Shown here one piece after another: positions 1 through 15,452 of a stretch of 64,000 bases of DNA. The stretch is from Escherichia phage vB_EcoM_TH18. The stretch is taken from the sequence record ON075799, one strand, 5' to 3'. Each line of letters begins with the position of its first letter. The first letter of the stretch is position 1. A program made the position numbers and the translations under genes. The notes under the pieces are model-generated. The model saw only the letters and a program-made list of their open reading frames with translations, did no database searches and was not told the DNA's origin.

Positions 1-575
1 GCAAGTTTTGCAAAAGGTGTAAATCTTGTTAATTTTGATTTATTGGTTGGTGTAGGATCTTTTTCTACTGTAAATCCTTCCGCTATTAGTTCACGAGAGC
101 TTGTTAAAAATTCACTTATTCCTGCTTGTCCTGGGTCAACACTGAAAATTATGGTAACATCATCACCATCAAAATAAGCCTGTTTCTTAATGATAACATC
201 ACGTTCCCCAGCTTTTTTACAGAATCTCCCCTGCGTTTGAGTTGAATATCTACCATCATCAAAAAATTCAGGACAATAATCACCAGACAAATAGTAAAAG
301 CCATCATTGTCTTTACTTACCTTAACAGATGCTGTAAAGTCAGGATATCTGTTTCCAGATGTTCTTTCTGTACCTGCTTTATCATACGGACGAACAGATA
401 CAACACCGAGAGGTAAGCAGGGAACCTCTTTTAAATAAGATCTCTGGAAATAGTTTGCCCCTTCAGGTCTTGCGTTCCAGTTTCCATGCAATAACTGGGC
501 TTTTTCTACCTCTGGAAGACCTTCAAGGAATGCTAGATAATCTGGGTTATTCTCCAGCATGGGAGGATTATCGAA
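1..575 (-). CDS. terminase large subunit-like protein, 3' exon (partial, continues beyond window start)
   Basis: Minus-strand frame open from ~575 to position 1, translating DNPPMLENNPDYLAFLEGLPEVEKAQLLHGNWN...VTIIFSVDPGQAG; follows the putative intron 3' end; in-frame stop just upstream marks exon start. Confidence 0.5.
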
Positions 576-1570
576 TCCTTGTATTCAAGGTTGGACGCAA
601 CGCCAACCCCCGCACCACTACGTGCTGCTGCATGTCACCATGCAGAGTAGACTATATCACCACCCACACATAATGGGTGCTTCGCTTTTCGAACGCCATT
701 AGCTTGCGATCTACTCCCTTGCGGGATAGTCGTTGAACTACATTACCATTCATAGTTGTTTGAGATATAGATGTAAGTTTTTCTATCTTTTATTCTTCTA
801 ACAAGATTAAAACTAACACCCCATTTTTTAGATATCTTATTAATGCTTAGGATACCGTCTCTCAGATCTTCACATATCCCTATAACTTTGGATTCACTAA
901 TTCTGTTGGAAGAAGGAACCATCCTGAAATTAAACTCTTTAGAAATGTCTGGGTAGACTCTCCCAGCTTTGATACTACTAACCACAGTCTGCCCAATACC
1001 AAACATCTCACTGATATCCTTTACTCTAGCACCCTGCTCAAGTAATCTGCATATCTCAAGGGCAGTGTTATCATCAAGAGGCCTGTAACTGTTTACATAA
1101 GACTTCTTAAGCCCTATTTCATGTGCGTGATGTGTGCTTTCCTTTGCAGTTGTCCACTCAAGATTCCACGCTGCGTTATTAAGTTTGTTTCCATCTAAAT
1201 GGTTCACTTGAGTTTTTGTATCAGGGCTATCATTCTCGACAAAAGCAAAAGCAATAACCCTATGGACAAGAACTTGAAACTTTTTACCATCCTCACACAA
1301 CGTTAACATTGCATAGCCAGTTTTCTTATGGACATTAGGATGTAAAAATTTGTGGGAATACAAACTATAAATTCTTCCATCATACGTCGCACAATAATGG
1401 GAATACCCTAAAAATCCTAAATTTTTCATCTCAAACATTCTCCCTACTACAGTTTCGGAAAAGTAATTATAGCTGCTGATTGCCCTTATACAAAGGGTTT
1501 CCCAGCAATTAACGAAGTTATTCGACATGCATTACTGCATGAAGCCACTATTCTTTTAATGGTTGCGGAA
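576..1570 (-). mobile_element. putative group I intron carrying an HNH homing endonuclease ORF (boundaries approximate)
   Basis: Separates two coding segments of one ATPase gene; R-like (revcomp of gatagtcgtt ~725) and S-like (revcomp of agactatatc ~650) elements in correct order at the 3' end. Confidence 0.5.
743..1528 (-). CDS. HNH homing endonuclease (intron-encoded)
   Basis: 261 aa ORF with HNH motif HRVIAFAFVEN...VNHLDGNKLNN; sits inside the intervening sequence; start codon uncertain. Confidence 0.7.
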   Translation of the reverse strand: MSNNFVNCWETLCIRAISSYNYFSETVVGRMFEMKNLGFLGYSHYCATYDGRIYSLYSHKFLHPNVHKKTGYAMLTLCEDGKKFQVLVHRVIAFAFVENDSPDTKTQVNHLDGNKLNNAAWNLEWTTAKESTHHAHEIGLKKSYVNSYRPLDDNTALEICRLLEQGARVKDISEMFGIGQTVVSSIKAGRVYPDISKEFNFRMVPSSNRISESKVIGICEDLRDGILSINKISKKWGVSFNLVRRIKDRKTYIYISNNYEW

Positions 1571-1902
1571 ATGAAGGAAAATGAAAGCGGTTTAGGCTTT
1601 CTTTTCTCATCCTTGCCATCCCAATACTTTTCAATTAATTCTTGCTCTGAGTCACCCCAGATAAATTCTCCGTCACGTCTTATAAACCATCTAATCACCC
1701 CATCTCGTTCAGGTATAGGATATCCCTCATCGTCTAAATACCAAGAAATCAACTCCTTAATCTTATGATCTGGATCAGGGTTACAAGAGATAACCATCCT
1801 GCTCGGATATTTAGAGTTTGAACGTAGACGAGATATCAGATAATCTATCTGTGACCATGTGAATTGTGTTCCCTCATCAAAGCCGATGAAGGTATACTGC
1901 AA
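1486..1902 (-). CDS. terminase large subunit-like protein, central exon (Walker B region); ORF ends likely run into introns
   Basis: Translation FIGFDEGTQF (hhhhDE Walker B-like) ...IWGDSEQELIEKYWDG; no plausible own start; flanked by intron-like sequence. Confidence 0.5.
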   Translation of the reverse strand: MQYTFIGFDEGTQFTWSQIDYLISRLRSNSKYPSRMVISCNPDPDHKIKELISWYLDDEGYPIPERDGVIRWFIRRDGEFIWGDSEQELIEKYWDGKDEKRKPKPLSFSFISATIKRIVASCSNACRITSLIAGKPFV

Positions 1903-1904
1903 CT

Positions 1905-2160
1905 TATTGTCCCCTCAGTTCGCTACACTGAGGCGGTGTGCCAAGACACCCGCCACATGTTTCCATGTGGAACAGACTATATCTTCCATCCTTGGCGTGC
2001 CGTTTGGATCACCAATCGCTTGTGATTCTACTCTCCTACACTCATCGGAGATAGTCGTTACACCCAGATTTTATATTTCCATATTCTGTGGCACGGTATT
2101 TTCCCATAGGGAGTTCCACCGTTATAGGCACGAAGGGCAAGCTATTCACCCTGATGATCT
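1905..2160 (-). mobile_element. putative small group I intron, no ORF (boundaries approximate)
   Basis: ~250 nt non-coding insert between exons; same R-like (gatagtcgtt ~2052) and S-like (agactatatc ~1975) motifs as the other three intervening sequences. Confidence 0.45.
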
Positions 2161-3512
2161 AATTTGTTATTCTCATACTCCATGTGTCTCCACAACACCT
2201 TTGCCCCAGATGGGAAAATTGCTTCCAGAGCTTTCTCCCTGAACTTCGGCTTCCATTCCTTATCGAGTTGCAAATAAATACTTTTTGCTGTATCAAAAAG
2301 CCCACCTGCACCTGTCAATTGAGGTGTTGTCCTACGAAACATTATACATGCTGTCTGCGGGTCATCGACATAAGCAAGCGGCATCAATTGTAGGAGATAT
2401 GATTTTCCACTATTCCCAGTGACAACCACACAATCTTCTAGTCTGGTAACAAAGAAACCTGTTTGTGTTACAAAGCAGTATTTAAACCCATCCGTAGGTA
2501 TAAACTCTTTAAACTCAGCTTTTCTGTCTTTATTAGCCAGTGACCTTAATCCTTTTCCTCTAGCCATAATATTAACAGTATAACTGTCCTTTCCACTTCT
2601 TGTATCATGGTTTATGGTGGTATTATAACCAAGAGAAGATCCTACAAACTGAACAAAATCAGCGTTCATCTTATGGACAGTAAAATATCTACCTGTAAAG
2701 CTGTTATGTGTTTTACCGCCATATGGCTTACAAAAAGAACCATCCCAATGAAAAATCTCATCAAGTATTATCTCCAGTTGTTCATTTGAACACTGATAGT
2801 ATTTCTCTGTAAATTTTTTATCAGGATATTTAGGCCATACAATAACCTCGTACTGTTCCCCAGTGGTATATCTTTCACTGGGTTTTGATCCTCTATCTTC
2901 ATATCTTAATCCAAACTTTTTACAAAGTTCGATTAAGCGGTCATATTTACGCTTTTTAGCAAAGCGCATCTGTGTATAATTATCTTTCCCTTCTTTAACA
3001 ACTCTCCCATCAGCCATGACAGCAACCTGAAGCCGTAATTCCCCTTCTGTCATGTCTATCCCAGGACCATCATAGTTAAATGTAGTTATGAACTTACCTG
3101 TCCAACCTTTTTTAACAGAGTTGTTATGTCTTTCTGCCACTTCAGAAAAAGAAAGTGTTCTTGGCTGTGATTTATAGTCTGGTTTATAAATCACAGTATG
3201 TTCGTCAGATAGCTCTTGACAAATGCCATTACCTTCTATTCTTGTAAGTTTTTCGCAAGGGAGTTTAACAAACTCTAAAGGGGGGATAAATTTAGCCTCC
3301 CCAGTGGCTTTGTCATATTGCAGAATGTCCTGCCCTGACCATTCTGATATCTTAATCCAGCCAGATGGTGTCAACACCTCGTGGTCTTTAGACAAACACC
3401 CGGCGGCCCCACCAATTATTAGAATTTGGGCTTTACTCTCCAAAATCATTTTTTGCTTAGGACTGGCAGGTCCAAATACTTTACTCAAAAGACCTCCATA
3501 TTTTCTATTCAT
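2142..3512 (-). CDS. terminase large subunit-like protein, 5' exon, with in-frame intein
   Basis: N-terminus ...ILIIGGAAG then intein then SGKSYLLQLM: extein junction reconstitutes a GGAAGSGKS P-loop (Walker A). Confidence 0.6.
   Translation of the reverse strand: MNRKYGGLLSKVFGPASPKQKMILESKAQILIIGGAAGCLSKDHEVLTPSGWIKISEWSGQDILQYDKATGEAKFIPPLEFVKLPCEKLTRIEGNGICQELSDEHTVIYKPDYKSQPRTLSFSEVAERHNNSVKKGWTGKFITTFNYDGPGIDMTEGELRLQVAVMADGRVVKEGKDNYTQMRFAKKRKYDRLIELCKKFGLRYEDRGSKPSERYTTGEQYEVIVWPKYPDKKFTEKYYQCSNEQLEIILDEIFHWDGSFCKPYGGKTHNSFTGRYFTVHKMNADFVQFVGSSLGYNTTINHDTRSGKDSYTVNIMARGKGLRSLANKDRKAEFKEFIPTDGFKYCFVTQTGFFVTRLEDCVVVTGNSGKSYLLQLMPLAYVDDPQTACIMFRRTTPQLTGAGGLFDTAKSIYLQLDKEWKPKFREKALEAIFPSGAKVLWRHMEYENNKLDHQGE
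2412..3398 (-). mobile_element. putative intein with LAGLIDADG-type endonuclease domain (residues ~39-367)
   Basis: Begins CLSKDHEVLTP (block A-like), contains LQVAVMADGR and LEIILDEIFHWDGSF, ends ...VVVTGN before Ser+1; interrupts the P-loop. Confidence 0.6.
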
Positions 3513-3583
3513 ACCATAGAGGGTAGTTTACCACGAATAACGATAAAAATAAAGCCCTTATCATTAAATAAGGGCATTGTCAA

Positions 3584-3877
3584 CTATTTATCTGAAGTAA
3601 ATATTGTCTTTACATACTGTTGTAGCGTTCTTAATTTCATACGATCTTCAGCAGCCTTAATGTTGTTTTTCTTGATCACCTCTATAGCATCCGCATTACT
3701 AAGACCACCTGGCAATTTTTCAGGTTCTTTCGGTGGTATCATAGCTTCAGCGGGTGGTCTTGCTAAGATATCGCTTATTATGATCTCTTTTGCAACAGGA
3801 ACAACTCTCTCAGGCGGTGAAGTGCACCCTGTTAACATCAATAATAGAAAAGGAACCATGATGACACACTTTTTCAT
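3584..3877 (-). CDS. o-spanin-like outer-membrane lipoprotein
   Basis: Signal peptide with lipobox LTGC, proline-rich mature part; overlaps the upstream i-spanin-like gene by 4 nt. Confidence 0.55.
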   Translation of the reverse strand: MKKCVIMVPFLLLMLTGCTSPPERVVPVAKEIIISDILARPPAEAMIPPKEPEKLPGGLSNADAIEVIKKNNIKAAEDRMKLRTLQQYVKTIFTSDK

Positions 3878-4275
3878 TTCACCCCCAGACTATCGTTATA
3901 AATATCAACAAACTGGTTATCTAGGCAAACCTGTTTTCCTGCTTGTGTTTTGCTATAACTTTTAACCTTTTTATCAAGGTCTTCTTTCAGTTGGTTATTA
4001 ATTTCTCTCTCTTTCACCAACATGGTTGACAACTCATCGATCTTATCCTGCTGTTGTTTTTTAAAAGCGTTGTTGTGATCTCTAACTTGCTGGTTAATCC
4101 TCTCCCATTTAAGGTCAGTATCGCTGACACCTGCGTTGTAGGATGATGTTAACTGGTCATTATACCAATGCTTTATCTCCACAACACCCCAAACGAGCAT
4201 CACACAACACAAAACGACACCTATCTGTTTTATGTTCTTAGAAAAGAAAGTTAACAGCGTTTTAAACCATATCAT
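3874..4275 (-). CDS. i-spanin-like protein (N-terminal TM helix plus coiled coil)
   Basis: 133 aa; hydrophobic N-terminus (IGVVLCCVMLVWGVV) followed by charged heptad-rich region. Confidence 0.55.
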   Translation of the reverse strand: MIWFKTLLTFFSKNIKQIGVVLCCVMLVWGVVEIKHWYNDQLTSSYNAGVSDTDLKWERINQQVRDHNNAFKKQQQDKIDELSTMLVKEREINNQLKEDLDKKVKSYSKTQAGKQVCLDNQFVDIYNDSLGVK

Positions 4276-5609
4276 GATATATCACCATCACACTCAATAA
4301 TATTTTCAATCTTCAACGTTGTTTTTCTGTTTTCAGAAATACACAGACTATTAAAATTGCTAATATCGTACTGGATCTTAGATGTATCGCTTACAGAAAC
4401 CTCTAACAGAACTGCTCCAGGCTGATATATTGTAAACCCATAACTATCTCCCTCCCCGTTCTCACACAGAATTTTGTACTCTCCTCTTGCCTCCGCTTCA
4501 TCAACATAAAGTCTGAGAGTTGGAAAATTATTTGCTATATCTTCTTTGTGAAGCCCAACATGATGTTTATCTTTTGTTGGCATCATGAGATAGAAAACTT
4601 CCGCAGGACAAACTCCATATAGTTTTGTAAAATATTTCCTACCTGTTGCTTTTCTTAATCTTTGGAAAATACTGAACATATTAACTTTAGATACATCATT
4701 AAACGGCAACGGTTGCACAGGGGTAACATTTTTGTCTACCTGCTGGCAACAAGATTCTAATCTGTCTAGGAACTCAACCAAAGAATCAAGTGAAAACTGT
4801 TTTGTCTCATCAAAGATATCTGACAGTTTCATTCCGTACATCCCGCTAAGATGTGACTTTGCCGATTCCCAACTTTCTATCTGAAGGCTGGCAATAGCCA
4901 TAGCCAGTTTCATTGTCTCTTTTTTCGAAATTGTATAGCCACGAGATTTGTATTTTTCAGATCTCAAAAGTGATATAATCGGGTATTCAGTCTTATGATT
5001 TACAACTAAGACTCTTTGAGCAATATGTTTTAAGAAATTGCTATCAAATTCCCACACACCATCCTTGAAGTTAAAAGCGCCCATGTTGATTGTAAAATCA
5101 ACTTTGCTAAAGATATCTTCTGTTGTTTTGAACACATCCACAGCAACACACTGTAATACAGGATCCTGCCCAAAGTACAGCGTTACGCTCTTATCTGTCA
5201 CACCAACTCTGGTAAGATTTGGGAGATCATCTTCTTCAAGATGAAAATTTTCACATCTGGACAAAGGGTCTGTGAAACATAAATGCGTATCCTGCCCATT
5301 ATCAAGGTTATAAAAATACCTAAAAGTTCTTTTTTGATTTTCCCATCCGTTTGTCTGTGCGGTTAAATCATACTTTCCACTTAAAAGATTTTTATCCATC
5401 ATGTACGCAATGAATATCTCAAGATTTTCCCAAGATGGGAAATACAAATCAAGATCGTTGACTTTACTATTAGAGAACAAAGAGGTTATTGCCCCGCCAG
5501 CTATCTTAACATCCAGCTTCGACAATAAATCATAAACACCTTTTGGTATAAAAGAGCACAAAATGTCGTACTCTCTTTGAAAATCTTCTTTTTTGAAAAC
5601 ATGCAACAT
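4272..5609 (-). CDS. Pol-beta-superfamily nucleotidyltransferase-fold protein, function unknown
   Basis: Start refined to MLHVFKK (ATG at 5609); motif IAGGAITSLFSNSKVNDLDLYF fits the hG[GS]-x9-13-DhD nucleotidyltransferase signature; long C-terminal domain unassigned. Confidence 0.55.
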   Translation of the reverse strand: MLHVFKKEDFQREYDILCSFIPKGVYDLLSKLDVKIAGGAITSLFSNSKVNDLDLYFPSWENLEIFIAYMMDKNLLSGKYDLTAQTNGWENQKRTFRYFYNLDNGQDTHLCFTDPLSRCENFHLEEDDLPNLTRVGVTDKSVTLYFGQDPVLQCVAVDVFKTTEDIFSKVDFTINMGAFNFKDGVWEFDSNFLKHIAQRVLVVNHKTEYPIISLLRSEKYKSRGYTISKKETMKLAMAIASLQIESWESAKSHLSGMYGMKLSDIFDETKQFSLDSLVEFLDRLESCCQQVDKNVTPVQPLPFNDVSKVNMFSIFQRLRKATGRKYFTKLYGVCPAEVFYLMMPTKDKHHVGLHKEDIANNFPTLRLYVDEAEARGEYKILCENGEGDSYGFTIYQPGAVLLEVSVSDTSKIQYDISNFNSLCISENRKTTLKIENIIECDGDIS

Positions 5610-5660
5610 CTTAGCTATCCTTAAGTACAAAACAAGATGCGTAGAGACTAGCACATAAAG

Positions 5661-5682
5661 AAAAACCCCGCAAGAGGCGGGG
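5661..5682 (-). terminator. rho-independent terminator downstream of the tRNA cluster
   Basis: Hairpin ccccgc-aagag-gcgggg with A-run on plus strand (U-run on minus-strand transcript). Confidence 0.55.
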
Positions 5683-5814
5683 TTAGGCATAGGAGAGGAG
5701 ATTGATTGGATTATTATTATAGTTATTTGAGAAAAGTGGCGAAGGAACCTTTACATGTCGAGAGTGTCTTACCGTTTACTCAGCCACGACCCTCCTTAGT
5801 GTCCACTTTAATTC

Positions 5815-5893
5815 TGGTTGCGAGTATTGGAATCGAACCTGCAATCTTCAGGGTATGAACCTAACATGGTAAATCCATTTCCACCAATCTGCA
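5815..5893 (-). tRNA. degenerate tRNA-like element (anticodon-loop CAU; weak acceptor and T stems)
   Basis: Canonical T-loop GGTTCGATTCC, D stem and anticodon arm TTAGG-TTCATAC-CCTGA present, but T stem and acceptor have several mismatches. Confidence 0.3.
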
Positions 5894-5899
5894 ATAATT

Positions 5900-5975
5900 T
5901 GGTGTGACGGACAGGATTCGAACCTGTGACCACCTAGTCTTCAGCAAGGCACTCTACCAACTGAGTTACCGTCAC
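5900..5975 (-). tRNA. tRNA-Phe (anticodon GAA)
   Basis: Manual cloverleaf: acceptor GTGACGG/CCGTCAC, D arm ACTC/GAGT, anticodon loop CTGAAGA, T loop TTCGAAT, encoded CCA. Confidence 0.8.
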
Positions 5976-5980
5976 ATAAT

Positions 5981-6057
5981 TGGTGGGCGATGAGGGACTC
6001 GAACCCCCAAAATTCAGGTTCTAAGCCTGACATGTATACCAATTCCATCAATCGCCC
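5981..6057 (-). tRNA. tRNA with anticodon UAG (Leu-reading) but short variable arm
   Basis: Acceptor GGGCGAT/ATCGCCC, anticodon arm TCAGG-CTTAGAA-CCTGA, T arm GGGGG-TTCGAGT-CCCTC, CCA encoded; D stem has one mismatch. Confidence 0.55.
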
Positions 6058-6071
6058 ATCTATATTAACAG

Positions 6072-6263
6072 TTATGGTTTTCCACGATACACAGAAATAG
6101 TTTTCCCATTAGCATTGATAACATAAGCGGTCTGATCCTCAGACAAAAACACTTTTTGATCAATGCCGGAAATAGCTATAGACTTTTGATGAGCACAATA
6201 CCCAACAATTTTCCCACAAAAAATTTGTTCATCATTTGGAGAGACGACTTTAACTGTTAACAT
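6072..6263 (-). CDS. small hypothetical protein (63 aa) inside the tRNA cluster
   Basis: Start refined to MLTVKVV with RBS agagga 6 nt upstream; the longer ORF-track start would overlap tRNA-Pro. Confidence 0.45.
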   Translation of the reverse strand: MLTVKVVSPNDEQIFCGKIVGYCAHQKSIAISGIDQKVFLSEDQTAYVINANGKTISVYRGKP

Positions 6264-6305
6264 GGTATCCTCTGTACATTTCTGCTTTGATATGTTTATG
6301 TTTGT

Positions 6306-6383
6306 TGGTCTGTCCGGTTGGATTTGAACCAACGACCTGGTCATCCCAAGTGACCCGCGCTACCCAAGCTGCGCTACGGACAG
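6306..6383 (-). tRNA. tRNA-Pro (anticodon UGG)
   Basis: Perfect cloverleaf: acceptor CTGTCCG/CGGACAG, D arm GCGC/GCGC, anticodon arm GGTCA-CTTGGGA-TGACC, T loop TTCAAAT, CCA encoded. Confidence 0.85.
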
Positions 6384-6467
6384 AGAAATGTAGATTTTAA
6401 TTGTCCCAGAATCTACTAACTGGTATCGCTGGCTAGGTGATATCTGTGACTTGATTAAGTCAAGAAT

Positions 6468-6559
6468 TGGCGGTTCCTGAAGGATTCGAACCTTCGGTGG
6501 GGAGATTCATTCCCAACGGCTTAACAGGCCGTCACCATCGACCACTCGGTCAAAGAACC
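6468..6559 (-). tRNA. type II (long variable arm) tRNA with anticodon GUU; identity uncertain
   Basis: 92 nt; acceptor GGTTCTT/AGGAACC (one G-U), anticodon arm ACGGC-CTGTTAA-GCCGT, ~20 nt variable arm, T arm GAAGG-TTCGAAT-CCTTC, CCA encoded. Confidence 0.55.
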
Positions 6560-6568
6560 TGAATATTT

Positions 6569-6645
6569 TGGTGGATCTGGTTGGGGTCGAACCAACAATC
6601 TCTCGATTAAAAGTCGAGTGACTTAAACCATTTGGCTACAAATCC
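6569..6645 (-). tRNA. tRNA-Lys (anticodon UUU), weak D arm
   Basis: Acceptor GGATTTG/CAGATCC, anticodon arm CTCGA-CTTTTAA-TCGAG, T arm GTTGG-TTCGACC-CCAAC, CCA encoded; D stem poorly paired. Confidence 0.55.
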
Positions 6646-6663
6646 GTTAAATTATCTTTAAAA

Positions 6664-6691
6664 TAGCTAATTACTCGCACATAATTAGCTA
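6664..6691 (-). terminator. hairpin plus U-run (terminator-like) within tRNA cluster
   Basis: Inverted repeat tagctaatt...aattagcta followed on the minus strand by TTTTAAAGA. Confidence 0.3.
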
Positions 6692-6878
6692 TACGCAACA
6701 ACTCTCCAAGGAGAGCACACTAATGATCGATTACGATTATATGACTAAATTTAGACCATCATAAGTGTTTGGCTTACGCCAGTAAAGAGCGGACTGCTCT
6801 GGGGTATCGGTAAGATGGTTGCAGCCATCTACCGAAAAATCACACCAAGCAACTAAACAAGCTACATTAAAGATAACT

Positions 6879-6967
6879 TGGAGGAGGCTGACAGAATCGA
6901 ACTGTCACCATATCTCTACAGCGGGACTGGGTTCAAACCAGCTTGTGCACCATGCACCCCAGCCTCC
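6879..6967 (-). tRNA. tRNA-Ser (anticodon UGA), type II
   Basis: 89 nt; acceptor GGAGGCT/AGCCTCC, anticodon arm GCTGG-TTTGAAC-CCAGT, long variable arm, T arm GACAG-TTCGATT-CTGTC, CCA encoded. Confidence 0.7.
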
Positions 6968-7038
6968 AAAGATAGCCTCTGCCGAGGATATACACCCAAC
7001 AAAGGAGGCGCTCAGGTCAGAAGAAATCTGAGCCTTAA

Positions 7039-7132
7039 TGGAGGAAGATGCCAGACTTGAACTGGCACACCCATTTCTGGGTTACTATCTCCTTAGCAGG
7101 GAGATCCCTTACCAAATTAGGGTTAATCTTCC
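7039..7132 (-). tRNA. tRNA-Ser (anticodon GCU), type II
   Basis: 94 nt; acceptor GGAAGAT/ATCTTCC, 3-bp D stem, anticodon arm TCTCC-CTGCTAA-GGAGA, T arm GCCAG-TTCAAGT-CTGGC, CCA encoded. Confidence 0.75.
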
Positions 7133-7153
7133 AATACCTTAGTAATTAAAAAC

Positions 7154-7243
7154 TGGTGGAGAAGGAGAGAATCGAACTCTCAAGCCGTTTTACCAGTCAG
7201 CACATTTCCAATGTGCTTTCGTCGCCAATCGATTTGCTTCTCC
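7154..7243 (-). tRNA. tRNA-Ser (anticodon GGA), type II
   Basis: 90 nt; acceptor GGAGAAG/CTTCTCC, anticodon arm GCACA-TTGGAAA-TGTGC, long variable arm, T arm GAGAG-TTCGATT-CTCTC, CCA encoded. Confidence 0.65.
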
Positions 7244-7252
7244 GTTTTAACT

Positions 7253-7328
7253 TGGCAGGGGATGGTTGATTCGAACAACCGATCACGGGGTCAAAGCCCG
7301 TTGCATTAGGCCACTATGCTAATCCCCT
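7253..7328 (-). tRNA. tRNA-Gln (anticodon UUG)
   Basis: Perfect cloverleaf: acceptor AGGGGAT/ATCCCCT, D arm GCAT/ATGC, anticodon arm ACGGG-CTTTGAC-CCCGT, T loop TTCGAAT, CCA encoded. Confidence 0.85.
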
Positions 7329-7333
7329 TTTGC

Positions 7334-7410
7334 ACGAGAGTGAGGAATAGAACCTCTTAGTCACTGGTTTTGGAGGCCAGCCTTCACCCAGTGAAGTTAC
7401 GCTACTCTCA
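7334..7410 (-). tRNA. non-canonical tRNA-like element
   Basis: Good acceptor (TGAGAGT/ACTCTCG) and T-loop-like GGTTCTATTCC, but D and anticodon regions do not fold into standard arms; no encoded CCA. Confidence 0.3.
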
Positions 7411-7417
7411 TTAAAAA

Positions 7418-7975
7418 CTATTTTCGAAAAGGACTTATGAAAAATGCCAACATCACTCTCTCTCTTGAAAAAGCTCTGTCTTCAGGAACCACACTCTTCA
7501 GTTTCCAACCGACATAAATTCGCCAGTAAAATTGTTTTCCAAACAATCTAAAAGACGGGACAAACGCGAATACACCCCACGCATTGTCATTCCACATCAA
7601 CAAATAGCCTTGTTGGTTATCCTCCACATCAGAGCTTACATGGAGGTTTCCTTTCCACTTTGTCACAGATGTGATTTCACGTCCAAGTACGTGATAGGAG
7701 AAATTGTAGGCTTTATTTCTCCACAACCAAGCAACTCGTTGTAGGTAAACACCAAAACTTCCTATTTTACGGACTTCTTCCCATCTCTCTATGTGTCCTC
7801 TATCACCGTCTATAGGATTATCATATGTCTCCATCCACCTGAAAATATAAGGCAGATGCCCTGTCTTCTCATTATAGAACGGAACAACAAAAGGAGCCAG
7901 AATAACACAGAGAACCGACATAACTGGGTCAAGAGGTGCTAACAGGATCCACGATAAATATTTTAAGTATCTCAT
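7418..7975 (-). CDS. hypothetical protein (185 aa, hydrophobic N-terminus)
   Basis: ORF from six-frame track; start overlaps stop of upstream gene (ATGA). Confidence 0.5.
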   Translation of the reverse strand: MRYLKYLSWILLAPLDPVMSVLCVILAPFVVPFYNEKTGHLPYIFRWMETYDNPIDGDRGHIERWEEVRKIGSFGVYLQRVAWLWRNKAYNFSYHVLGREITSVTKWKGNLHVSSDVEDNQQGYLLMWNDNAWGVFAFVPSFRLFGKQFYWRIYVGWKLKSVVPEDRAFSRERVMLAFFISPFRK

Positions 7976-8202
7976 GCAGGATCAAGCCTAGATATAATGT
8001 ACTGGTTTAAATCTGAATATGGGAAGATACTTTCAAAGATAACCTGTTTAAATCTGAAGCCGCACAAACCGAAAAGTACCTTCTGACACTCACCAAAAGA
8101 GCAATCTTTACCAACTTTTATCACAACCGTATCGGCAATCTGCACACTTTCTATCTCTTTAGATTCATGATGCCGTACTATGATTACTTTAGAAACCATC
8201 AT
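7972..8202 (-). CDS. hypothetical protein (76 aa)
   Basis: ORF from six-frame track; translationally coupled to downstream gene. Confidence 0.45.
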   Translation of the reverse strand: MMVSKVIIVRHHESKEIESVQIADTVVIKVGKDCSFGECQKVLFGLCGFRFKQVIFESIFPYSDLNQYIISRLDPA

Positions 8203-8327
8203 ACTCGTCCATATTAAAGCCTTCTACTAAAGATAGTAGATGTCTAGGGTTGGACCGCAAACGCAACCCCATGGAATTTGTTACGGTCTTCAGTTGACCC
8301 AAGCGGATTTCATTGACATCTTTTAAC

Positions 8328-8402
8328 TGGAGCATCCAGAGGGTATCGAACCCTCGACTTCAGCTTGGAAGGCTGTAGTTTTCCCAATTAAACTATGGAT
8401 GC
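8328..8402 (-). tRNA. tRNA-Gly (anticodon UCC)
   Basis: Acceptor GCATCCA/TGGATGC, D arm GTTT/AAAC, anticodon arm (A)CAGC-CTTCCAA-GCTG, T arm GAGGG-TTCGATA-CCCTC, CCA encoded. Confidence 0.75.
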
Positions 8403-8407
8403 ATATT

Positions 8408-8483
8408 TGGTGGGAGTGGTAGGCTCTGCCCCTACGTCCTCTCGATTATCGGTCGAGCGATCTACTAACTGATCTACACTCCC
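8408..8483 (-). tRNA. tRNA-like cloverleaf with Ile-type anticodon GAU but non-canonical D and T loops and C at position 33
   Basis: All four stems perfectly paired, CCA encoded, but D loop AGTTAGTA lacks GG, T loop is GGCAGAG (no TTC), anticodon loop is CCGATAA. Confidence 0.5.
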
Positions 8484-8546
8484 AAACTGTACTGGCCCAA
8501 CAACCACGATTGGAGGGTATCGTCACACATCAAAGCCAGTACAGTT
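8484..8546. other. long perfect hairpin (13-bp stem, ~37-nt loop) between two tRNA genes
   Basis: aaactgtactggc (8484-8496) and gccagtacagttt (8534-8546) are exact reverse complements. Confidence 0.6.
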
Positions 8547-8551
8547 TTAGT

Positions 8552-8641
8552 TGGTGTGCCGTGATAGAGTCGAACTACCCGAGTCCCTTTCGAGACAGGA
8601 GATTTACAGTCTCCCCCGCTACCCCTACGGTCTAACGACAC
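8552..8641 (-). tRNA. tRNA-Tyr (anticodon GUA), type II
   Basis: 90 nt; acceptor GTGTCGT/ACGGCAC (one G-U), anticodon arm GGAGA-CTGTAAA-TCTCC, long variable arm, T loop TTCGACT, CCA encoded. Confidence 0.7.
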
Positions 8642-8642
8642 A

Positions 8643-8990
8643 TTAACCTTGTTTGAATTGAACAATATCCGTCGAGAACGGTTTAGCTGCCTTAATAGGT
8701 GCTTTTTCTGAGTTATCTTTTTCGAGTAACTCTTCGTTTTCCTCATCAAAGTAATCAGAAAGCATCTGCTCACCTTTCTCAATAACATAACGAGCTATAT
8801 TTTCTCTGATATTGTCTTTTGTATTCACATTCTTCATCAAATCCCTAAGAACCTGATGAGCTTCAGGAATCATTGCAATCAGATTCGTTTTTAAATCTAG
8901 GATATTTTTCTCTAACTGAATTGCATTAGATTCCTCTTTCAGAGGACGACCTTTTCCTCTTCTACGTTTTGTAAGCTGCTTAGTAGCCAT
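8643..8990 (-). CDS. hypothetical protein (116 aa, basic N-terminus)
   Basis: Start refined to MATKQLTKRRRGKG; the longer ORF-track N-terminus overlaps the tRNA cluster; sigma70-like promoter just upstream. Confidence 0.5.
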   Translation of the reverse strand: MATKQLTKRRRGKGRPLKEESNAIQLEKNILDLKTNLIAMIPEAHQVLRDLMKNVNTKDNIRENIARYVIEKGEQMLSDYFDEENEELLEKDNSEKAPIKAAKPFSTDIVQFKQG

Positions 8991-9009
8991 TTTAAAACCC
9001 CACTTAATG

Positions 9010-9039
9010 ATATTATCAAATAAAAACATATCTGTCAAG
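9010..9039 (-). promoter_or_regulatory. sigma70-like promoter (TTGACA, 18-nt spacer, TAATAT)
   Basis: Minus strand reads TTGACA...TAATAT shortly upstream of the ATG at 8990. Confidence 0.5.
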
Positions 9040-9075
9040 TGGTATTTTAACATATTTACCAAGAAATTGAAAGTT

Positions 9076-9152
9076 TGGAGCACGGTGTCGGACTTGAACC
9101 GACATATATCTGTTTTGCAGACAGATCCGTAACCAAATTCCAGCAACCGTGC
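9076..9152 (-). tRNA. tRNA-Cys (anticodon GCA)
   Basis: Acceptor GCACGGT/ACCGTGC, anticodon arm TCTGT-CTGCAAA-ACAGA, T arm GTCGG-TTCAAGT-CCGAC, CCA encoded; D stem weak. Confidence 0.65.
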
Positions 9153-9228
9153 AATAAGTACCCCAGGTAGAGAACCTATAGAGTGGGTCTTACGAGCCGC
9201 GCTGACGATTCTCAAGTTGGGGTTAATC

Positions 9229-9305
9229 TGGTCGAGGAGACAGGATTCGAACCTGTGACCTACGGCTTAGAAGGCCGCTGCTCTATCCAACTGAGCTACA
9301 CCCCG
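9229..9305 (-). tRNA. tRNA-Arg (anticodon UCU)
   Basis: D arm GCTC-AGTTGGATA-GAGC, anticodon arm GCGGC-CTTCTAA-GCCGT, T arm ACAGG-TTCGAAT-CCTGT, CCA encoded; acceptor has one mismatch. Confidence 0.7.
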
Positions 9306-9505
9306 AAAATAAGAATGCTTTATAGTGTATGGTTACTCAACCTCACTCCAACTTCCACAGTTGGTGCTCTACGAGCATGACTACGTTTGAAATCAACGTT
9401 GCGCACCGATAGCTTTCTCACGCATTGTATGCCTCATTCCCAACAAATGCTGATCAGACATTTATATCGAATAATATAAGCTAATACACTATAAAACAAA
9501 CTTGT

Positions 9506-9602
9506 GGCTGGGTGATGGAATCGAACCACCTATGTATTCAACGGCTTCCCCGTCTATTTTCAGGATTATAAATCCTCGCCCTTGCCAAAGGGCTTACCCA
9601 GC
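9506..9602 (-). tRNA. over-long (97 nt) tRNA-like element, anticodon arm ambiguous
   Basis: Perfect acceptor (GCTGGGT/ACCCAGC), D arm GCCC-TTTGGCAA-GGGC, T arm GGTGG-TTCGATT-CCATC; central region has only a 4-bp stem with loop TTTATAA and ~30 extra nt; no encoded CCA. Confidence 0.35.
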
Positions 9603-9604
9603 AT

Positions 9605-9679
9605 TGGTGCTCGCAGCAGGTTTCGAACCTGCAACCCCCTGCTTACAAGGCAGGTGCTCTACCGTTGAGCTATACGAGC
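9605..9679 (-). tRNA. tRNA-Thr (anticodon UGU)
   Basis: Acceptor GCTCGTA/TGCGAGC, D arm GCTC/GAGC, anticodon arm CCTGC-CTTGTAA-GCAGG, T arm GCAGG-TTCGAAA-CCTGC, CCA encoded. Confidence 0.85.
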
Positions 9680-10044
9680 AATAAGACATTGCTTCCGATT
9701 AACAGCCTTGAGGCTTTACAGACCATATCTTGTGAGCCATAACCTGTGCCAAGGATTTCAGATGATAAACGAAATTTTATCTTTCAAGAGTCAACTTTCA
9801 AGTTTCATCTTTTACATTTAACCATTGACCTTTATTGTATGAACTTTTACTTAGTGGAAACAACAAGGCATCTTCGTGTGCCTCGCTGCATCTATGTCCT
9901 GTATTATCCTCATACATATACGATACATGGTGGGGGATATTTAACCTCCAACCCCCAGGAGGCAAGATGATGTAAACTTCGTTAATCAAAAGCAATGTTT
10001 TAAATTTCAAAACAAAGGAACGATAATGATATTATCAGAGCCTT

Positions 10045-10692
10045 TTAGAGAGAGTGCTCAATCTCAATTTCTGTCTTAGCGTTTGACTCAGACAACGCAA
10101 AATCAACGTTAGACAAGAAATCTTCAATCTCTTCTTCAAGAGAACGAATCTTAGAAGCCAGTTCAAGAGGATCCACAACCGATGGTGTGTTCATCATTCG
10201 AATAGGAGCTTCCACAGTCTTAATCTGCTCTGCATCTGGCGCTTTATCACGTTGGATATATGGCGCTCTTGCATTTTCAAGTTTATCTTCCAGAGATTTT
10301 TCTTCTTTTGCCAGAAGAAGCTGTGCAGAAGCACGCTGTGCACAAAGTTTGTTTAACAACTCTTGTTTAAAGCAAATCGTCCGTTTGCGTTCGATTGCCT
10401 CAGCAACTGTCATAGACACATTACCAATTTTGACAATTGTCTCAGCATTAGACTTAACAATTTTTGCTTTCAGTTCATCACGCACTGCCAAGAGGTCTTG
10501 CAGACTTTGATAGTCGTTGATCGCAGATTTCTTAAAATCATCAACAGAGCCGATATAACCCGGAATCTTACAATTATTCTCAGTTCCTTTTGCAATCTTA
10601 ATACAATCAAGATTGTAGATACGCTTATTGATCTTATCTTCAATTTTAGAGATAGAAGCAAGTGCACGAGTTACGGAAATCTTAGTAGACAT
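10045..10692 (-). CDS. hypothetical protein (215 aa, charged coiled-coil-like)
   Basis: ORF from six-frame track; charged, heptad-like composition. Confidence 0.55.
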   Translation of the reverse strand: MSTKISVTRALASISKIEDKINKRIYNLDCIKIAKGTENNCKIPGYIGSVDDFKKSAINDYQSLQDLLAVRDELKAKIVKSNAETIVKIGNVSMTVAEAIERKRTICFKQELLNKLCAQRASAQLLLAKEEKSLEDKLENARAPYIQRDKAPDAEQIKTVEAPIRMMNTPSVVDPLELASKIRSLEEEIEDFLSNVDFALSESNAKTEIEIEHSL

Positions 10693-10765
10693 GCGATCTC
10701 TCCTATGTAAATCAGCTTTGATAAAGTAACTATCCAGAAAAACAAAAACTATGTCAAGAAAAATT

Positions 10766-10957
10766 TTAATCTTTTACAGCATCTTTTATAGAATCACAAA
10801 GATCTTGAACAACATCAGATGTCGGTGACAAAATCATCTCGTCGGCTGCTGCTATAGCATCTGATGCTAAATCAACAAACGGAGTTGTTACCGCAGAAGT
10901 CACTTCAACAGCCGTTATTGTTACTTCGCTTGCAATCTTAAGCAAAGATCCTATCAT
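10766..10957 (-). CDS. hypothetical small acidic protein (63 aa)
   Basis: ORF from six-frame track in an otherwise gene-free gap. Confidence 0.4.
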   Translation of the reverse strand: MIGSLLKIASEVTITAVEVTSAVTTPFVDLASDAIAAADEMILSPTSDVVQDLCDSIKDAVKD

Positions 10958-11033
10958 AATCTCAACCCTCCTGAATATCCGTGATTCCCTTTATTTAACG
11001 ACGCTGGCTCACGGTGGCACTCTCGTCAATAAA

Positions 11034-11357
11034 CTATTTTTTAGTTTTCTTACCGTTTTCTACAGAAATGCTTGTTTTCTGTTTCGCTTCTCGTTCGCGC
11101 TTTGTTTTCCCAGTGCGAATACGATATGAAGCAGAAATAACTTCACCACCAATGACACGAGACACAGATTCGTAATACATTTCAGTATTACCGTCTTCAT
11201 CTTTGCGTTTTTTCAGAACTGCTACAGTTTGCGTTTTACCACCAAGGCGCACATCGTGCGGTGCAGAATGTGTCTGCGTGGATTTTGATCCAAACTGAAA
11301 AGGTTGCTTTATCGCCTCGATAGCTGACACCTTTTTAGCAGACTGTTTCTTAGCCAT
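11034..11357 (-). CDS. hypothetical basic protein (107 aa)
   Basis: Start refined to MAKKQSAKK with strong RBS ggagga upstream; lysine/arginine-rich. Confidence 0.55.
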   Translation of the reverse strand: MAKKQSAKKVSAIEAIKQPFQFGSKSTQTHSAPHDVRLGGKTQTVAVLKKRKDEDGNTEMYYESVSRVIGGEVISASYRIRTGKTKREREAKQKTSISVENGKKTKK

Positions 11358-11408
11358 TAAGTTTTCTCCTCCGAAAACAATAAACATAGTTTATTTCGTG
11401 TGCCACAT

Positions 11409-11485
11409 TTGGTGGCCCCTGCTGGACTTGAACCAGCGACCAAGCGATTATGAGTCACCTGCTCTATCCAACTGAGCTAAGGGGC
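11409..11485 (-). tRNA. tRNA-Met (anticodon CAU; initiator/elongator/Ile2 not distinguished)
   Basis: Acceptor GGCCCCT/AGGGGCC, D arm GCTC-AGTTGGATA-GAGC, anticodon loop CTCATAA, T arm GCTGG-TTCAAGT-CCAGC, CCA encoded. Confidence 0.8.
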
Positions 11486-11818
11486 CGAATCTCTTAATAT
11501 GAGATGATATTATCCTGTATGATCTACATTGTCAAGAGATATTTTAAAATTTTATACATCCCAGTTTTCTTCTTGATAACAACCTTCCCCGAATCCAACT
11601 TCTTTTTCAAAATCAATACCTTTTTTCATACATTCCTCACATTAACAGATATTGTTTTCAAACTCAAAACGTAAAATACGAACTCTGTCAATACACTGCT
11701 GTAATCTACAAAGCAACAACTCAACTTGTTTATGCGTCTCTTCAGTATACGTTTTGGTCATCTTGCTTTTCTCCGTGATCTTTTCATTGCAGCTTCTGCA
11801 CGTCTTTGTTTACGATTT

Positions 11819-12067
11819 TTAGATGGTTGTTCTAAGGATCCTGATAACGTACTTTGTTGTGCTAATCCCTTCGATGGGGTAGAAATAATATAATCCCCCT
11901 TCTTCACCGAACGATGCAATATATTTCCAGGATTCAATTCCAAAACCAGTTGTAGAAAAAGCGACATCATCCGCTTCTTCAAGCGCATCATCATGTGTTT
12001 TATGGAAAGACTCATGTTCTACGTACTCCCCGTTATCAGACTTAAGAACCATTTTTAATTTAAACAT
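11819..12067 (-). CDS. hypothetical acidic protein (82 aa)
   Basis: ORF from six-frame track with ggtga RBS-like sequence upstream; preferred over the overlapping frame 11758..12015. Confidence 0.45.
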   Translation of the reverse strand: MFKLKMVLKSDNGEYVEHESFHKTHDDALEEADDVAFSTTGFGIESWKYIASFGEEGGLYYFYPIEGISTTKYVIRILRTTI

Positions 12068-12135
12068 AACAAATCACCACTAATTTTATTTTTATCTTGT
12101 TATTAGATCTTATCAGTGGTGTTTATTTTTGTCAA

Positions 12136-12342
12136 TTAAACTATTCCAAAAGCCTTGACACCACGCTCGTATTCTGCTACTGCAAGCTCATGAGGAGAAA
12201 GGTCACATGAGGCATCCTTGCAAAGACCGACTTCGATGTAATGTTCTTCTAGTCCATCAAGGATATCTGGCTCCCACGCTTTTTTCATGTCTGGATGGAC
12301 TGATGCACGATTTCTATCGTACTTCGCTACGAGATTTCTCAA
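12136..12342 (-). CDS. hypothetical protein (68 aa)
   Basis: ORF from six-frame track, downstream of the nadV terminator. Confidence 0.45.
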   Translation of the reverse strand: MRNLVAKYDRNRASVHPDMKKAWEPDILDGLEEHYIEVGLCKDASCDLSPHELAVAEYERGVKAFGIV

Positions 12343-12354
12343 AACATTCTCCTC

Positions 12355-12382
12355 AAAATAAAAACCCCTCCATGTGGAGGGG
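12355..12382 (-). terminator. rho-independent terminator after nadV
   Basis: Hairpin cccctcca/tggagggg preceded on the plus strand by an A-run (U-run on the minus transcript). Confidence 0.55.
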
Positions 12383-12395
12383 AATGATTATGGTG

Positions 12396-14111
12396 TTAAA
12401 GCTGTGATAAGGCTCTTTGGCGAATTTCTTCAAGATCCTCATCCACAAGCAGCTTACCATTAACAAAAACTGTTCTAAGCTCGTTATCATGGTCAGATAC
12501 TTGGTTAATACCAAGATTATCTACCAGCTTCAACTCGCCATCATCACCACGAATAACTTTAACAAAACCTTTCGCAGATTTCTTCCCAAGATCAGTCTTA
12601 GGCTCTTTTACGACCATTACTTGTCTGCCATCAATCACAGCACCAGTAGCTTTTACAGCCATCCCAAGAGAATCACGGGTTGTATATTGCGTTGTATAAG
12701 ACCCTACACCAAACACAATGTTACTGGAAGCAAACCCTCGTTCTTCAAGGCGCTCAAAGATCTCTTTAGCACGGGAGATTGTGATAGAGTCTCCGTAGAT
12801 TAAACCAACATGGCTATCAAGAACTTTGTAACCCAAAGAGTTTACACTACCACCAAAGATTTCCCACAAGCATTGTACAGCACCCTTAACTTCCTCTTTT
12901 GTCAGATAATTTGTAAATTCATCACCTGTCAAAGATTTCCAATCTACGAGGTTGCCTTCCGAATCTCGCATCCATGAAGTGTCTCTGGACATCTCGTATA
13001 AAGTGACATATTTGCCATTTTTAAACAGCACAGCATCCATGTCACAGCACTGCCCCGTTGCCCATTCTTCCTGAGAGCACACGCGATAACCAGCAATGAT
13101 GTGCTCTGGGATCCCACTGTCAGGTCGGAAGACCAGCTTGCCATCACGAGACATAATCTCATCTTTCAGGATTTTTGCTGCCTGTGTAATGATTGCCCAA
13201 AAATCATAGCTGTCAGCGACGTATGAAGCATAACCTGATGGGAAAATCTCTGTCACATAACGCTTTAAGAACTCAACTTCAGCACGAAAACGTGCTTCAT
13301 CAAGCGGCATATCAGGATTTTCCTGCTGGATACGCTCAACAATAAAACCAATGTTCGTTGTCGCTACGCTATGCTCAGATGCGGGAATAGACCCAGCAAC
13401 AAAGCGACCTTTCATGTTGTAATAGCGATTTGCGTAAACAATCGCTGGAATTGTATCTGTGCCCATTGAGCTAATCAGTTGCCCAAATTCGCTCTGTGCT
13501 GCGTCATGTGTTCCAGCTTCACCACGGTATGCAAAACAATGGTTCTGGAAAGGAACATGATCGTTGTTATCACATGTTTTCTTTGCCCACAGTTCTGATA
13601 GTTTACGGTATTGCCAGAAAGTCGTTGCCGTGGTAATTGTCTTCCAAGTCTCCGATGAGATCACGCTCTCAAGGAAGTTCGGCAGCCAGTAAAAATCAGG
13701 ATGCGTGTTCTGAATCGTGAACATGGGAACCTGAACAGGAACAAGAGTTCCTTCAGGCAAAGCCCTAATTTCAATTGGGAGATAACCAAGGTCATGCAAT
13801 TTCTCAAAACCCCAAGTTTCAACAGCATCCTTCCCAATGCTCAAATCACAAATCTCTTTGTAATCCTGAATCGCCTTTTCTTTCGGTAAAGCGAAGAAAT
13901 TATTATTAAACATGTCGATCAGGAACCACTTGATAAATCCCTGAAGACCTGCAAACATCACACGATGGTCATCATCTGCAAAGTGTACAAAGTGTTTCAC
14001 ATTGCGTGGGGTCATGTTGTCTTGAACAAACTGTGAACGTCTATCGTACATCGAGATGTGACTTGGTTTATAAAAATCTGCGAACAGCAATGGACTTTCT
14101 TTGTGAAGCAT
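12396..14111 (-). CDS. nadV: nicotinamide phosphoribosyltransferase (NAMPT/NadV family)
   Basis: 571 aa; overall resemblance to the NAMPT family by eye (not searched); adjacent to a PRPP synthetase gene. Confidence 0.7.
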   Translation of the reverse strand: MLHKESPLLFADFYKPSHISMYDRRSQFVQDNMTPRNVKHFVHFADDDHRVMFAGLQGFIKWFLIDMFNNNFFALPKEKAIQDYKEICDLSIGKDAVETWGFEKLHDLGYLPIEIRALPEGTLVPVQVPMFTIQNTHPDFYWLPNFLESVISSETWKTITTATTFWQYRKLSELWAKKTCDNNDHVPFQNHCFAYRGEAGTHDAAQSEFGQLISSMGTDTIPAIVYANRYYNMKGRFVAGSIPASEHSVATTNIGFIVERIQQENPDMPLDEARFRAEVEFLKRYVTEIFPSGYASYVADSYDFWAIITQAAKILKDEIMSRDGKLVFRPDSGIPEHIIAGYRVCSQEEWATGQCCDMDAVLFKNGKYVTLYEMSRDTSWMRDSEGNLVDWKSLTGDEFTNYLTKEEVKGAVQCLWEIFGGSVNSLGYKVLDSHVGLIYGDSITISRAKEIFERLEERGFASSNIVFGVGSYTTQYTTRDSLGMAVKATGAVIDGRQVMVVKEPKTDLGKKSAKGFVKVIRGDDGELKLVDNLGINQVSDHDNELRTVFVNGKLLVDEDLEEIRQRALSQL

Positions 14112-14174
14112 GATCTCAACCCTCCAACCTAAAAGCGTATTTTTTCACTAAAACGTATCTTTGTCAAGATGTAA

Positions 14175-15382: not shown

Positions 15383-15452
15383 CGAGAATGCTACTCATAA
15401 CACCACACAATGTCAACCCCTCCCATATGTCCCCATTTCAGGGACATTATGA

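Follow-up and report, generated by a model that had tools for sequence, protein, structure and literature searches.

Escherichia phage vB_EcoM_TH18 carries a predicted tRNA-Leu(UAG) with a leucine-type body and a short variable loop

The stretch of DNA analysed here (the window) is 64,000 nucleotides of Escherichia phage vB_EcoM_TH18 (record ON075799); its positions 1-15447 correspond to 64001-79447 of OK136180. A tRNA array lies on the minus strand at 5815-11486 and contains 16 tRNAs called by ARAGORN and three further Rfam tRNA-like matches. The third gene from the end of this array is a 77-nt tRNA gene at 5981-6057, also on the minus strand, that ARAGORN calls tRNA-Leu(tag) with an encoded CCA. 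A sequence-only reading of the window had placed a tRNA at these positions without giving the strand, and the ARAGORN call agrees with it. Rfam family RF00005 matches the gene over its full length (model positions 1-71 of 71) with 63.0 bits (gathering score 29, E = 3e-12) and no non-canonical pairs flagged. No other Leu tRNA occurs in the window or in the 79-kb scaffold of an identical phage.

On the sense strand the 5' half of the tRNA reads GGGCGAU UG AUGG AAUUGGUAU ACAU G UCAGG CUUAGAA and the 3' half reads CCUGA AUUUU GGGGG UUCGAGU CCCUC AUCGCCC A CCA. The D-arm (6032-6048) has a 3-bp stem closed by a G13·A22 mismatch, and its loop contains A14, A15, G18G19 and A20a. The anticodon arm, UCAGG-CUUAGAA-CCUGA (6014-6030), has a perfectly paired stem and the anticodon UAG at 6021-6023; both features had been read from the sequence earlier and are confirmed by ARAGORN and the Rfam alignment. 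The variable loop is AUUUU (6009-6013), which upholds the earlier count of five nucleotides, and its last base, U48, is the Levitt-pair partner of A15. The T-arm, GGGGG-UUCGAGU-CCCUC (5992-6008), has U54, U55, C56 and A58. The discriminator base A73 is at 5984 and the encoded CCA is at 5981-5983. When the tRNA is folded as a single sequence, the minimum free energy (MFE) structure is not a cloverleaf (-26.9 versus -24.4 kcal/mol for the cloverleaf, z = -1.99); the MFE fold of the homolog from phage 4MG is the cloverleaf. Since single-sequence folding misses the cloverleaf, the covariance model and covariation are relied on for the fold.

A tRNA-Phe gene with anticodon GAA (5900-5975, ARAGORN and Rfam) is located immediately downstream of tRNA-Leu in the same orientation, followed by a 79-nt tRNA-Met(CAU) gene called by ARAGORN (5815-5893, minus strand). 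The three genes are separated by only 5-6 nt, and tRNA-Leu is probably co-transcribed with the Phe and Met genes. A strong intrinsic-terminator-like hairpin, AACCCCGC-CTCTT-GCGGGGTT followed by a T run, was detected by a consensus scan at 5664-5684 on the minus strand, about 130 nt past the last tRNA; the tRNA transcription unit probably ends here. The tRNA-Met gene itself scores 25.1 bits in Rfam, under the gathering score, and the isotype classifier described below gives it 3.8 bits for Gln and 0.2 for Met. Escherichia phages 18-1-2, 19-1-2 and 24-2-1 match this region at 100% identity and Av-05 (Vequintavirinae, Avunavirus) at 96%, and the records of these four phages have no tRNA annotation across it.

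The phage tRNA was laid out structurally, element by element, against all five E. coli K-12 Leu isoacceptors (leuW, leuZ, leuU, leuX and leuQPV). All share U8-G9, a 3-bp D-stem, a purine13·A22 mismatch and a D-loop of the form AAU(U/C)GGUA(G/U) that holds A14, A15, G18G19 and A20a. The phage D-loop, AAUUGGUA, is nearly identical to those of the host isoacceptors, with one position differing, and the whole D-arm is AUGG-AAUUGGUAU-ACAU in the phage and G(C/U)G(G/A)-AAU(U/C)GGUAG-AC(G/A)C in the host. U48, directly 5' of the T-stem, and A73 are present in the phage tRNA and in all five isoacceptors. The T-loop UUC(A/G)AGU is also common to both, and the phage version, UUCGAGU, is identical to that of leuX. 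The anticodon UAG is that of leuW. Position 37 is A in the phage tRNA and G (m1G) in leuW and the other E. coli tRNALeu that read CUN codons, and the acceptor stems of the phage and host tRNAs are unrelated. The sole architectural difference is the variable region, which is AUUUU in the phage and a 13-15-nt arm in all five host isoacceptors; the earlier statement that bacterial tRNA-Leu is type II thus holds for this host. A blastn search of the 77-nt tRNA against 5,426 E. coli genomes found no match at E <= 10, and the likeness to the host is visible only by a structure-aware comparison, position by position.

The shared positions are those on which E. coli leucyl-tRNA synthetase (LeuRS) is known to rely. 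The identity set, as summarised in PMC9976931 citing Larkin 2002, comprises A73, A14, A15-U48, G18G19, A20a and tertiary pairs that join the D-loop to the T-loop. SELEX experiments have shown that A15-U48, G18G19 and A20a are essential and that G18:U55, G19-C56 and U54:A58 matter too (PMC9976931). Neither the anticodon nor the long arm is needed by E. coli LeuRS, and the arm is described as characteristic but not a determinant (PMC9976931). Truncated tRNALeu without the arm is still charged by the enzyme (PMC9976931 citing Larkin 2002; PMC6614811). The phage tRNA has A73, U8, A14, A15, U48, G18G19 and A20a, and the partners U54-A58, G18-U55 and G19-C56 are present, so far as such contacts can be deduced from sequence. 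G18G19 occupies the Leu-specific position of the 9-nt D-loop, next to a 3-bp D-stem and a non-Watson-Crick 13·22 pair. What is missing is the long variable arm of class II tRNAs, 5 nt being found in place of the 13-15 nt of the host. The phage tRNA is, judged by its sequence, outside the architectural definition of tRNALeu while keeping the published LeuRS recognition set.

Three kinds of short-armed tRNALeu have been described elsewhere. Minimalist E. coli tRNALeu constructs lack the arm and, according to PMC9976931, are still LeuRS substrates if A73 and the D/T-loop contacts are intact. These constructs are engineered; some have no anticodon arm either and play no part in translation. The phage tRNA amounts to a natural version of them. 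The type I tRNALeu(CAA) of Streptomyces coelicolor is a natural bacterial tRNA with a short variable loop that is leucylated by its own LeuRS (PMC6614811). Its identity element is C74, not A73, and E. coli LeuRS fails to charge it (PMC6614811), which suggests that arm loss is tolerated depending on context and not automatically. It was modelled on a canonical type I tRNA (PMC6614811), whereas the phage tRNA keeps a type II style core with the 13·22 mismatch and A15-U48. The animal mitochondrial tRNALeu(UUR) and tRNALeu(CUN) are short-armed as well, with identity resting on A73 and A14 (PMC9976931), but mitochondria have a dedicated LeuRS that charges them, their structures are fragile, and they are unrelated in sequence to the phage tRNA.

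Homologs of the 77-nt tRNA were found by blastn in 180 phage records at 77-100% identity. Those of the rV5-like phages 4MG, GAP31 and PVP-SE1 are 84-87% identical and annotated as tRNA-Leu, annotated homologs in T5-like phages are about 77% identical, and Vibrio and Aeromonas phages carry homologs as well. Some homologs are labelled 'tRNA-Pseudo-TAG' or 'tRNA-OTHER' (phiR2-01, NBSal005), and the arm-less Leu body accounts for these pipeline labels. In the Vequintavirinae 4MG, GAP31 and PVP-SE1 the tRNA-Leu(UAG) gene is syntenic, in the order Ala/…-Leu-Val/Phe upstream of the terminase gene. Compared with 4MG, the anticodon stem has two compensatory double changes. Phage 4MG carries, in addition, a short-armed Leu tRNA whose anticodon is UAA; the TH18 window has the UAG tRNA only.

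Of all these relatives, only tRNAL1 of BF23 carries experimental annotation. The BF23/T5 tRNAL1 (AJ604530) is 77 nt long and, like the phage tRNA, has an anticodon loop CUUAGAA, A73 and an encoded CCA, with the same D-arm, UGAUGGAAUUGG[C/U]AUAC. Its variable loop is GUUUU where that of TH18 is AUUUU, both being U-rich and 5 nt long. The acceptor stem differs (GCGUGAU in tRNAL1, GGGCGAU in TH18), tRNAL1 has a U30·U40 mismatch, and the two phages belong to Demerecviridae and Vequintavirinae, respectively. The note in AJ604530 states that tRNAL1 recognizes CUA and that replacing its anticodon by CUA gave an effective amber suppressor; the inserted amino acid is not named. The relative is therefore charged, with an amino acid that the note leaves unstated, and used by the E. 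coli ribosome. The phage tRNA is homologous to tRNAL1 and its relatives and shares with them the D-arm, a 5-nt U-rich loop and a Leu anticodon. The Leu(UAG) gene is an unannotated, new representative of a phage tRNA-Leu family that is already known.

A scan of viral contigs for the 17-nt D-arm gave at least 120 loci. Among the matches listed, 119 of 120 tRNAs with this D-arm have a Leu anticodon and one has a Gln anticodon, the Leu anticodons being UAG (54), UAA (37), CAA (20), AAG (5), GAG (2) and CAG (1). These six anticodons belong to two codon boxes whose sole common property is the amino acid, as predicted if selection acts on the Leu identity of the body. The tRNAs in the same matches are mostly 74-77 nt long (109), and 11 are long-armed (83-88 nt). 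The long-armed twins show the short form to be the same tRNA minus its arm.

The cloverleaf is well supported in this family. In 59 diverse members 98.7% of cloverleaf cells are paired, compared with 66.9% in shuffles, and sliding the register cuts pairing to 33-48%. Changes on both sides were found in 19 of 20 pairs, and the covariation supports all four helices. In the 98 unique family members of 77 nt, U8, A14, A15, A20a and G18 are invariant (98 of 98 each), and U48, U54, U55, C56, A58, A73 and G19 are present in 97 each, while the stems vary freely. The core of the phage D-arm is thus among the invariant parts. The consensus of the variable loop is (A/G)UU(U/C)U, with ATTTT the commonest form. 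The gene encodes a conserved, covarying cloverleaf tRNA with an encoded CCA, a Leu-type D-arm, A15-U48 and A73.

The identity of the body was scored with the anticodon masked. The classifier is a home-made surrogate that sums position-specific naive-Bayes log-odds in structural numbering and ignores the variable region, and for its Leu class the training examples were long-armed Leu tRNAs only. In the first set-up, cross-validated by locus with an accuracy of 80%, the tRNA scored 21.6 bits for Leu and 2.2 for Ala, the strongest isotype call of any tRNA in the window. The first viral sample had been recruited by the D-arm itself, which was controlled in two further set-ups. Removal of Leu training examples with a D-arm within two mismatches of the phage one gave 17.1 bits for Leu and 2.7 for Ala, with the D region contributing 14.7 of the 17.1 bits. 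With a training sample recruited by a generic T-arm plus CCA pattern, containing zero Leu examples with the phage D-arm, the scores were 12.9 bits for Leu and 2.3 for Tyr at a cross-validated accuracy of 63%; the host controls leuW and leuV gave 22.7 and 24.6 bits for Leu. Across the three set-ups the Leu score of the whole molecule exceeds that of any rival isotype by 10-19 bits. A15 together with U48 is present in 135 of 143 short-armed Leu tRNAs among the matches listed; the combination is rarer in most other isotypes and common in Arg, Trp and Lys.

It had been proposed from the sequence that the tRNAs of this phage decouple the anticodon from the body type. This is correct insofar as a Leu anticodon is carried by a tRNA of type I shape. 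The body, however, is Leu apart from the arm, and for Leu(UAG) the proposal is not supported: the surrogate scores the tRNA as Leu in three set-ups and related phages have annotated homologs, the two outcomes that the sequence-only reading had named as refuting it. The link between shape and anticodon is looser in viral contigs than in cells: among the matches listed, 36% of Leu tRNAs are short-armed, and 23 of 37 UAU and 6 of 84 GUU tRNAs are long-armed.

The figure for Leu comes from a second viral sample, recruited by the generic T-arm plus CCA pattern independently of the D-arm, in which tRNAs of <= 80 nt were counted as short. Among the matches listed from this sample, 27 of 74 unique tRNAs with Leu anticodons are short-armed, and all Ser (0 of 47 short) and Tyr (0 of 17) tRNAs keep the long arm. 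Leu would be the one class II isotype able to lose its arm because SerRS depends on the arm. Bacterial TyrRS also depends on it. In cellular genomes the same D-arm occurs, among the matches listed, in 36 long-armed Leu tRNAs out of 52 and in 15 short-armed copies, the latter mainly in dense tRNA arrays.

Isolate genomes of Tumebacillus avium (L158, chromosome), T. lipolyticus (L179) and Effusibacillus consociatus (L138), however, have a 77-nt short-armed Leu(CAA) with the same D-arm. In these Alicyclobacillaceae it sits in an ordinary-looking chromosomal operon, Gly-Thr-Asn-Ala-Leu-Tyr-Met-Ser, which indicates that cellular type I tRNALeu is not confined to Streptomyces. A second short-armed viral kind (L249-L367) has the D-arm UAGCCCAACUGGCAGAGGC and variable loops such as AUGUU and UCAGU. 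Its D-arm follows the Leu-type plan (3 bp plus C13·A22, A14A15, GG at 18-19, A20a) but its sequence is unlike that of the T5/rV5 family, and arm loss may therefore have occurred more than once.

A review by Giegé and Eriani (PMC9976931) describes tRNALeu as long-armed everywhere but in animal mitochondria, and a 2019 study found that only type II tRNALeu is charged by E. coli LeuRS. In contrast to both, coliphages routinely carry arm-less Leu tRNAs with the full E. coli identity set. No description of short-armed tRNALeu in phages was found in the literature searched, which did not extend to the older papers on T5/BF23 tRNAs. The phage tRNAs are natural counterparts of the minimalist tRNALeu and ready substrates for probing the function of the long arm. 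For the TH18 window itself the finding carries little weight, the gene being an ordinary member of a family with an experimentally handled T5/BF23 relative; the wider pattern is of interest to tRNA specialists.

The codon usage of the phage, which has a GC content of 40%, agrees with a modest role in decoding. In 47 long open reading frames of the window CUA makes up 10.2% of Leu codons (8.8 per 1000), CUU 26% and CUG 15%, compared with 3% (4.1 per 1000), 15% and 47% in a small sample from E. coli; the phage uses CUA about twice as often. The sequence-only reading had singled out CUA in the late genes for comparison. No enrichment is present there: in the blocks annotated in OK136180 the frequency is 6.9 per 1000 in structural genes (minus strand) and 8.2 in early genes (plus strand), and of the 19 Leu codons in the major capsid gene 16 are CUG and none is CUA. 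Any benefit of codon supply would thus be genome-wide and modest. A tRNA with anticodon UAG could read CUU too if its U34 carries the modification found in host tRNALeu(UAG). The likely role of the tRNA is to supply CUA/CUN decoding. A suppressor or recoding role was rejected, as the anticodon UAG reads CUA and CUG and not a stop codon.

The gene very probably encodes a functional phage tRNA-Leu(UAG) that descends from a long-armed tRNALeu of bacterial type by loss of the variable arm. The long arm of the ancestor would have been lost and a U-rich 5-nt linker left in its place. The tRNA would be transcribed with the minus-strand array and processed by host enzymes. Host LeuRS, which would ignore both the anticodon and the missing arm, is predicted to charge it with leucine via A73 and the elbow where the D- and T-loops meet (A14, A15-U48, G18G19, A20a, U54-A58). 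The charged tRNA would then decode CUA and CUG, and possibly CUU with the U34 modification, and may supplement a host decoding pool poor in CUA for a phage in which CUA and CUU are commoner than in its host.

It is also possible, though unlikely, that the arm was lost for an adaptive reason, a short-armed Leu tRNA escaping host nucleases or toxins that recognise or cut class II variable arms. This is compatible with a normal Leu acceptor and competes only with codon supply as the account of the form of the tRNA. Cleavage of tRNATyr in its variable loop has been reported for retron-Eco7 and Septu, and the tRNATyr of T5 is reported to escape by having a different variable loop (PMC13096335), which suggests an alternative driver, namely that an arm-less tRNALeu would be invisible to an arm-directed nuclease. 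The high frequency of short-armed Leu tRNAs in viral contigs, set against the mostly long-armed cellular tRNAs with the same D-arm, and the lack of CUA enrichment in late genes fit this idea. The anticodon loop also differs from that of leuW at 32, 37 and 38, in line with the idea of evasion by loop mutations (PMC10264068). However, no defence system that cuts the variable arm of tRNALeu was found in the literature searched, 27 viral loci among the matches listed hold both short- and long-armed Leu tRNAs, and relaxed constraint is sufficient because LeuRS does not need the arm. The more specific proposal that arm loss is a countermeasure, open to Leu tRNAs because LeuRS would alone among the synthetases of class II tRNAs be independent of the arm, so that host nucleases or toxins keyed to the arm are evaded, is considered improbable. 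If it were true, the gene would serve as an anti-defence replacement tRNA and not to supplement codon usage, and short-armed tRNALeu, about one third of the viral Leu tRNAs sampled, would be the signature of an undescribed immunity that targets tRNALeu.

The strong form of the decoupling proposed earlier is that the tRNA mistranslates, its type I body being charged with another amino acid such as Ala or Val while it reads Leu codons. Nematode nev-tRNAs are an example of such identity-mismatched tRNAs. The acceptor stem GGGCGAU on its own is slightly Ala-like (4.6 bits in the second set-up), Ala, Val, Ile, Lys and Met tRNAs have A73 too, and 28 of 143 short-armed Leu-anticodon tRNAs from viral loci, among the matches listed, are not classified as Leu. 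Alanine identity requires G3·U70, and it was rejected for the phage tRNA, whose pair 3-70 is G-C and not G·U. The synthetases for Val, Ile and Met rely on anticodon bases that UAG does not contain. The body and the anticodon of the phage tRNA are both Leu, the Leu score stands well above that of every other isotype, and the Leu anticodons of nearly all tRNAs with this D-arm would have no explanation if a different amino acid were attached to the body. Mistranslation is very unlikely on these grounds. That the gene is a decaying, non-functional pseudogene, as the 'pseudo' and 'other' labels of homologs, the missing annotation in the four closest records and the MFE fold might suggest, is hardly credible given strong covariation in phages that have diverged widely, tertiary positions that hardly vary among them, the compensatory changes relative to 4MG, the intact CCA, T-loop and 7-nt anticodon loop, and the effective suppressor derived from the BF23 relative.

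Two other sequences in the array are noteworthy for a long variable region. A 92-nt tRNA with anticodon GUU at 6468-6559 (minus strand, Rfam 56.8 bits) is the only GUU tRNA in the array, and the type II arm attributed to it earlier is indeed present, with a variable arm of about 20 nt. It has G73, G1-C72, G2-C71 and a Ser-like D-arm, and it carries both the bacterial Asn set (anticodon and G73) and the Ser set (long arm, acceptor pairs and G73), which makes its charging ambiguous. The classifier weakly prefers Ser (4.9 bits). The tRNA is kept at 81-82% identity in GAP31, 4MG and EC152, where it is annotated as tRNA-Asn, and the six long-armed tRNAs among the 84 unique GUU tRNAs listed from viral loci have several unrelated bodies.

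The other is a 97-nt tRNA-like sequence at 9506-9602 (minus strand) that scores 33 bits in Rfam and is missed by ARAGORN. Its anticodon loop is UUUAUAA, and its variable region contains a long insert. The predicted anticodon UAU would read AUA, which makes up 19% of Ile codons in the phage. The 23 long-armed (> 82 nt) tRNAs among the 37 unique UAU tRNAs listed come from viral loci that include L007, L024, L031, L034, L043, L051 and L056, and a motif such as CCAGAUUAG or CUAGAUAAG recurs in many of their variable arms. From their sequences, long-armed AUA-reading tRNAs look like a recurrent phage class, and no description of one was found in the literature searched. The long-armed GUU tRNA and the long-armed UAU class are more puzzling than the Leu(UAG) tRNA.

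Several other features of the region were observed. A GAU (Ile) tRNA at 8411-8483 (minus strand) scores 53 bits in Rfam and is missed by ARAGORN; its T-loop is GGCAGAG, compared with the usual UUCRANY. A tRNA-like sequence at 7336-7407 (minus strand), directly upstream of tRNA-Gln, is syntenic with the tRNA-Trp(CCA) of 4MG. Its top Rfam match is tRNA-Sec with a sub-threshold score of 32 bits and its anticodon-loop region looks irregular; the sequence could be a tRNA-Trp that is degenerate or unusual. A small open reading frame of about 63 codons (6073-6263, minus strand) lies between tRNA-Pro and tRNA-Leu and is a "hypothetical protein" in related records, and small open reading frames are interleaved in the tRNA arrays of BF23 and 4MG too. 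Just downstream of the array, the terminase large subunit is annotated as three pieces in OK136180 (64743-67488, about 743-3488 of the window, minus strand). Two of the three are separated by an HNH homing endonuclease open reading frame, which suggests an insertion of intron or intein type in the terminase gene.
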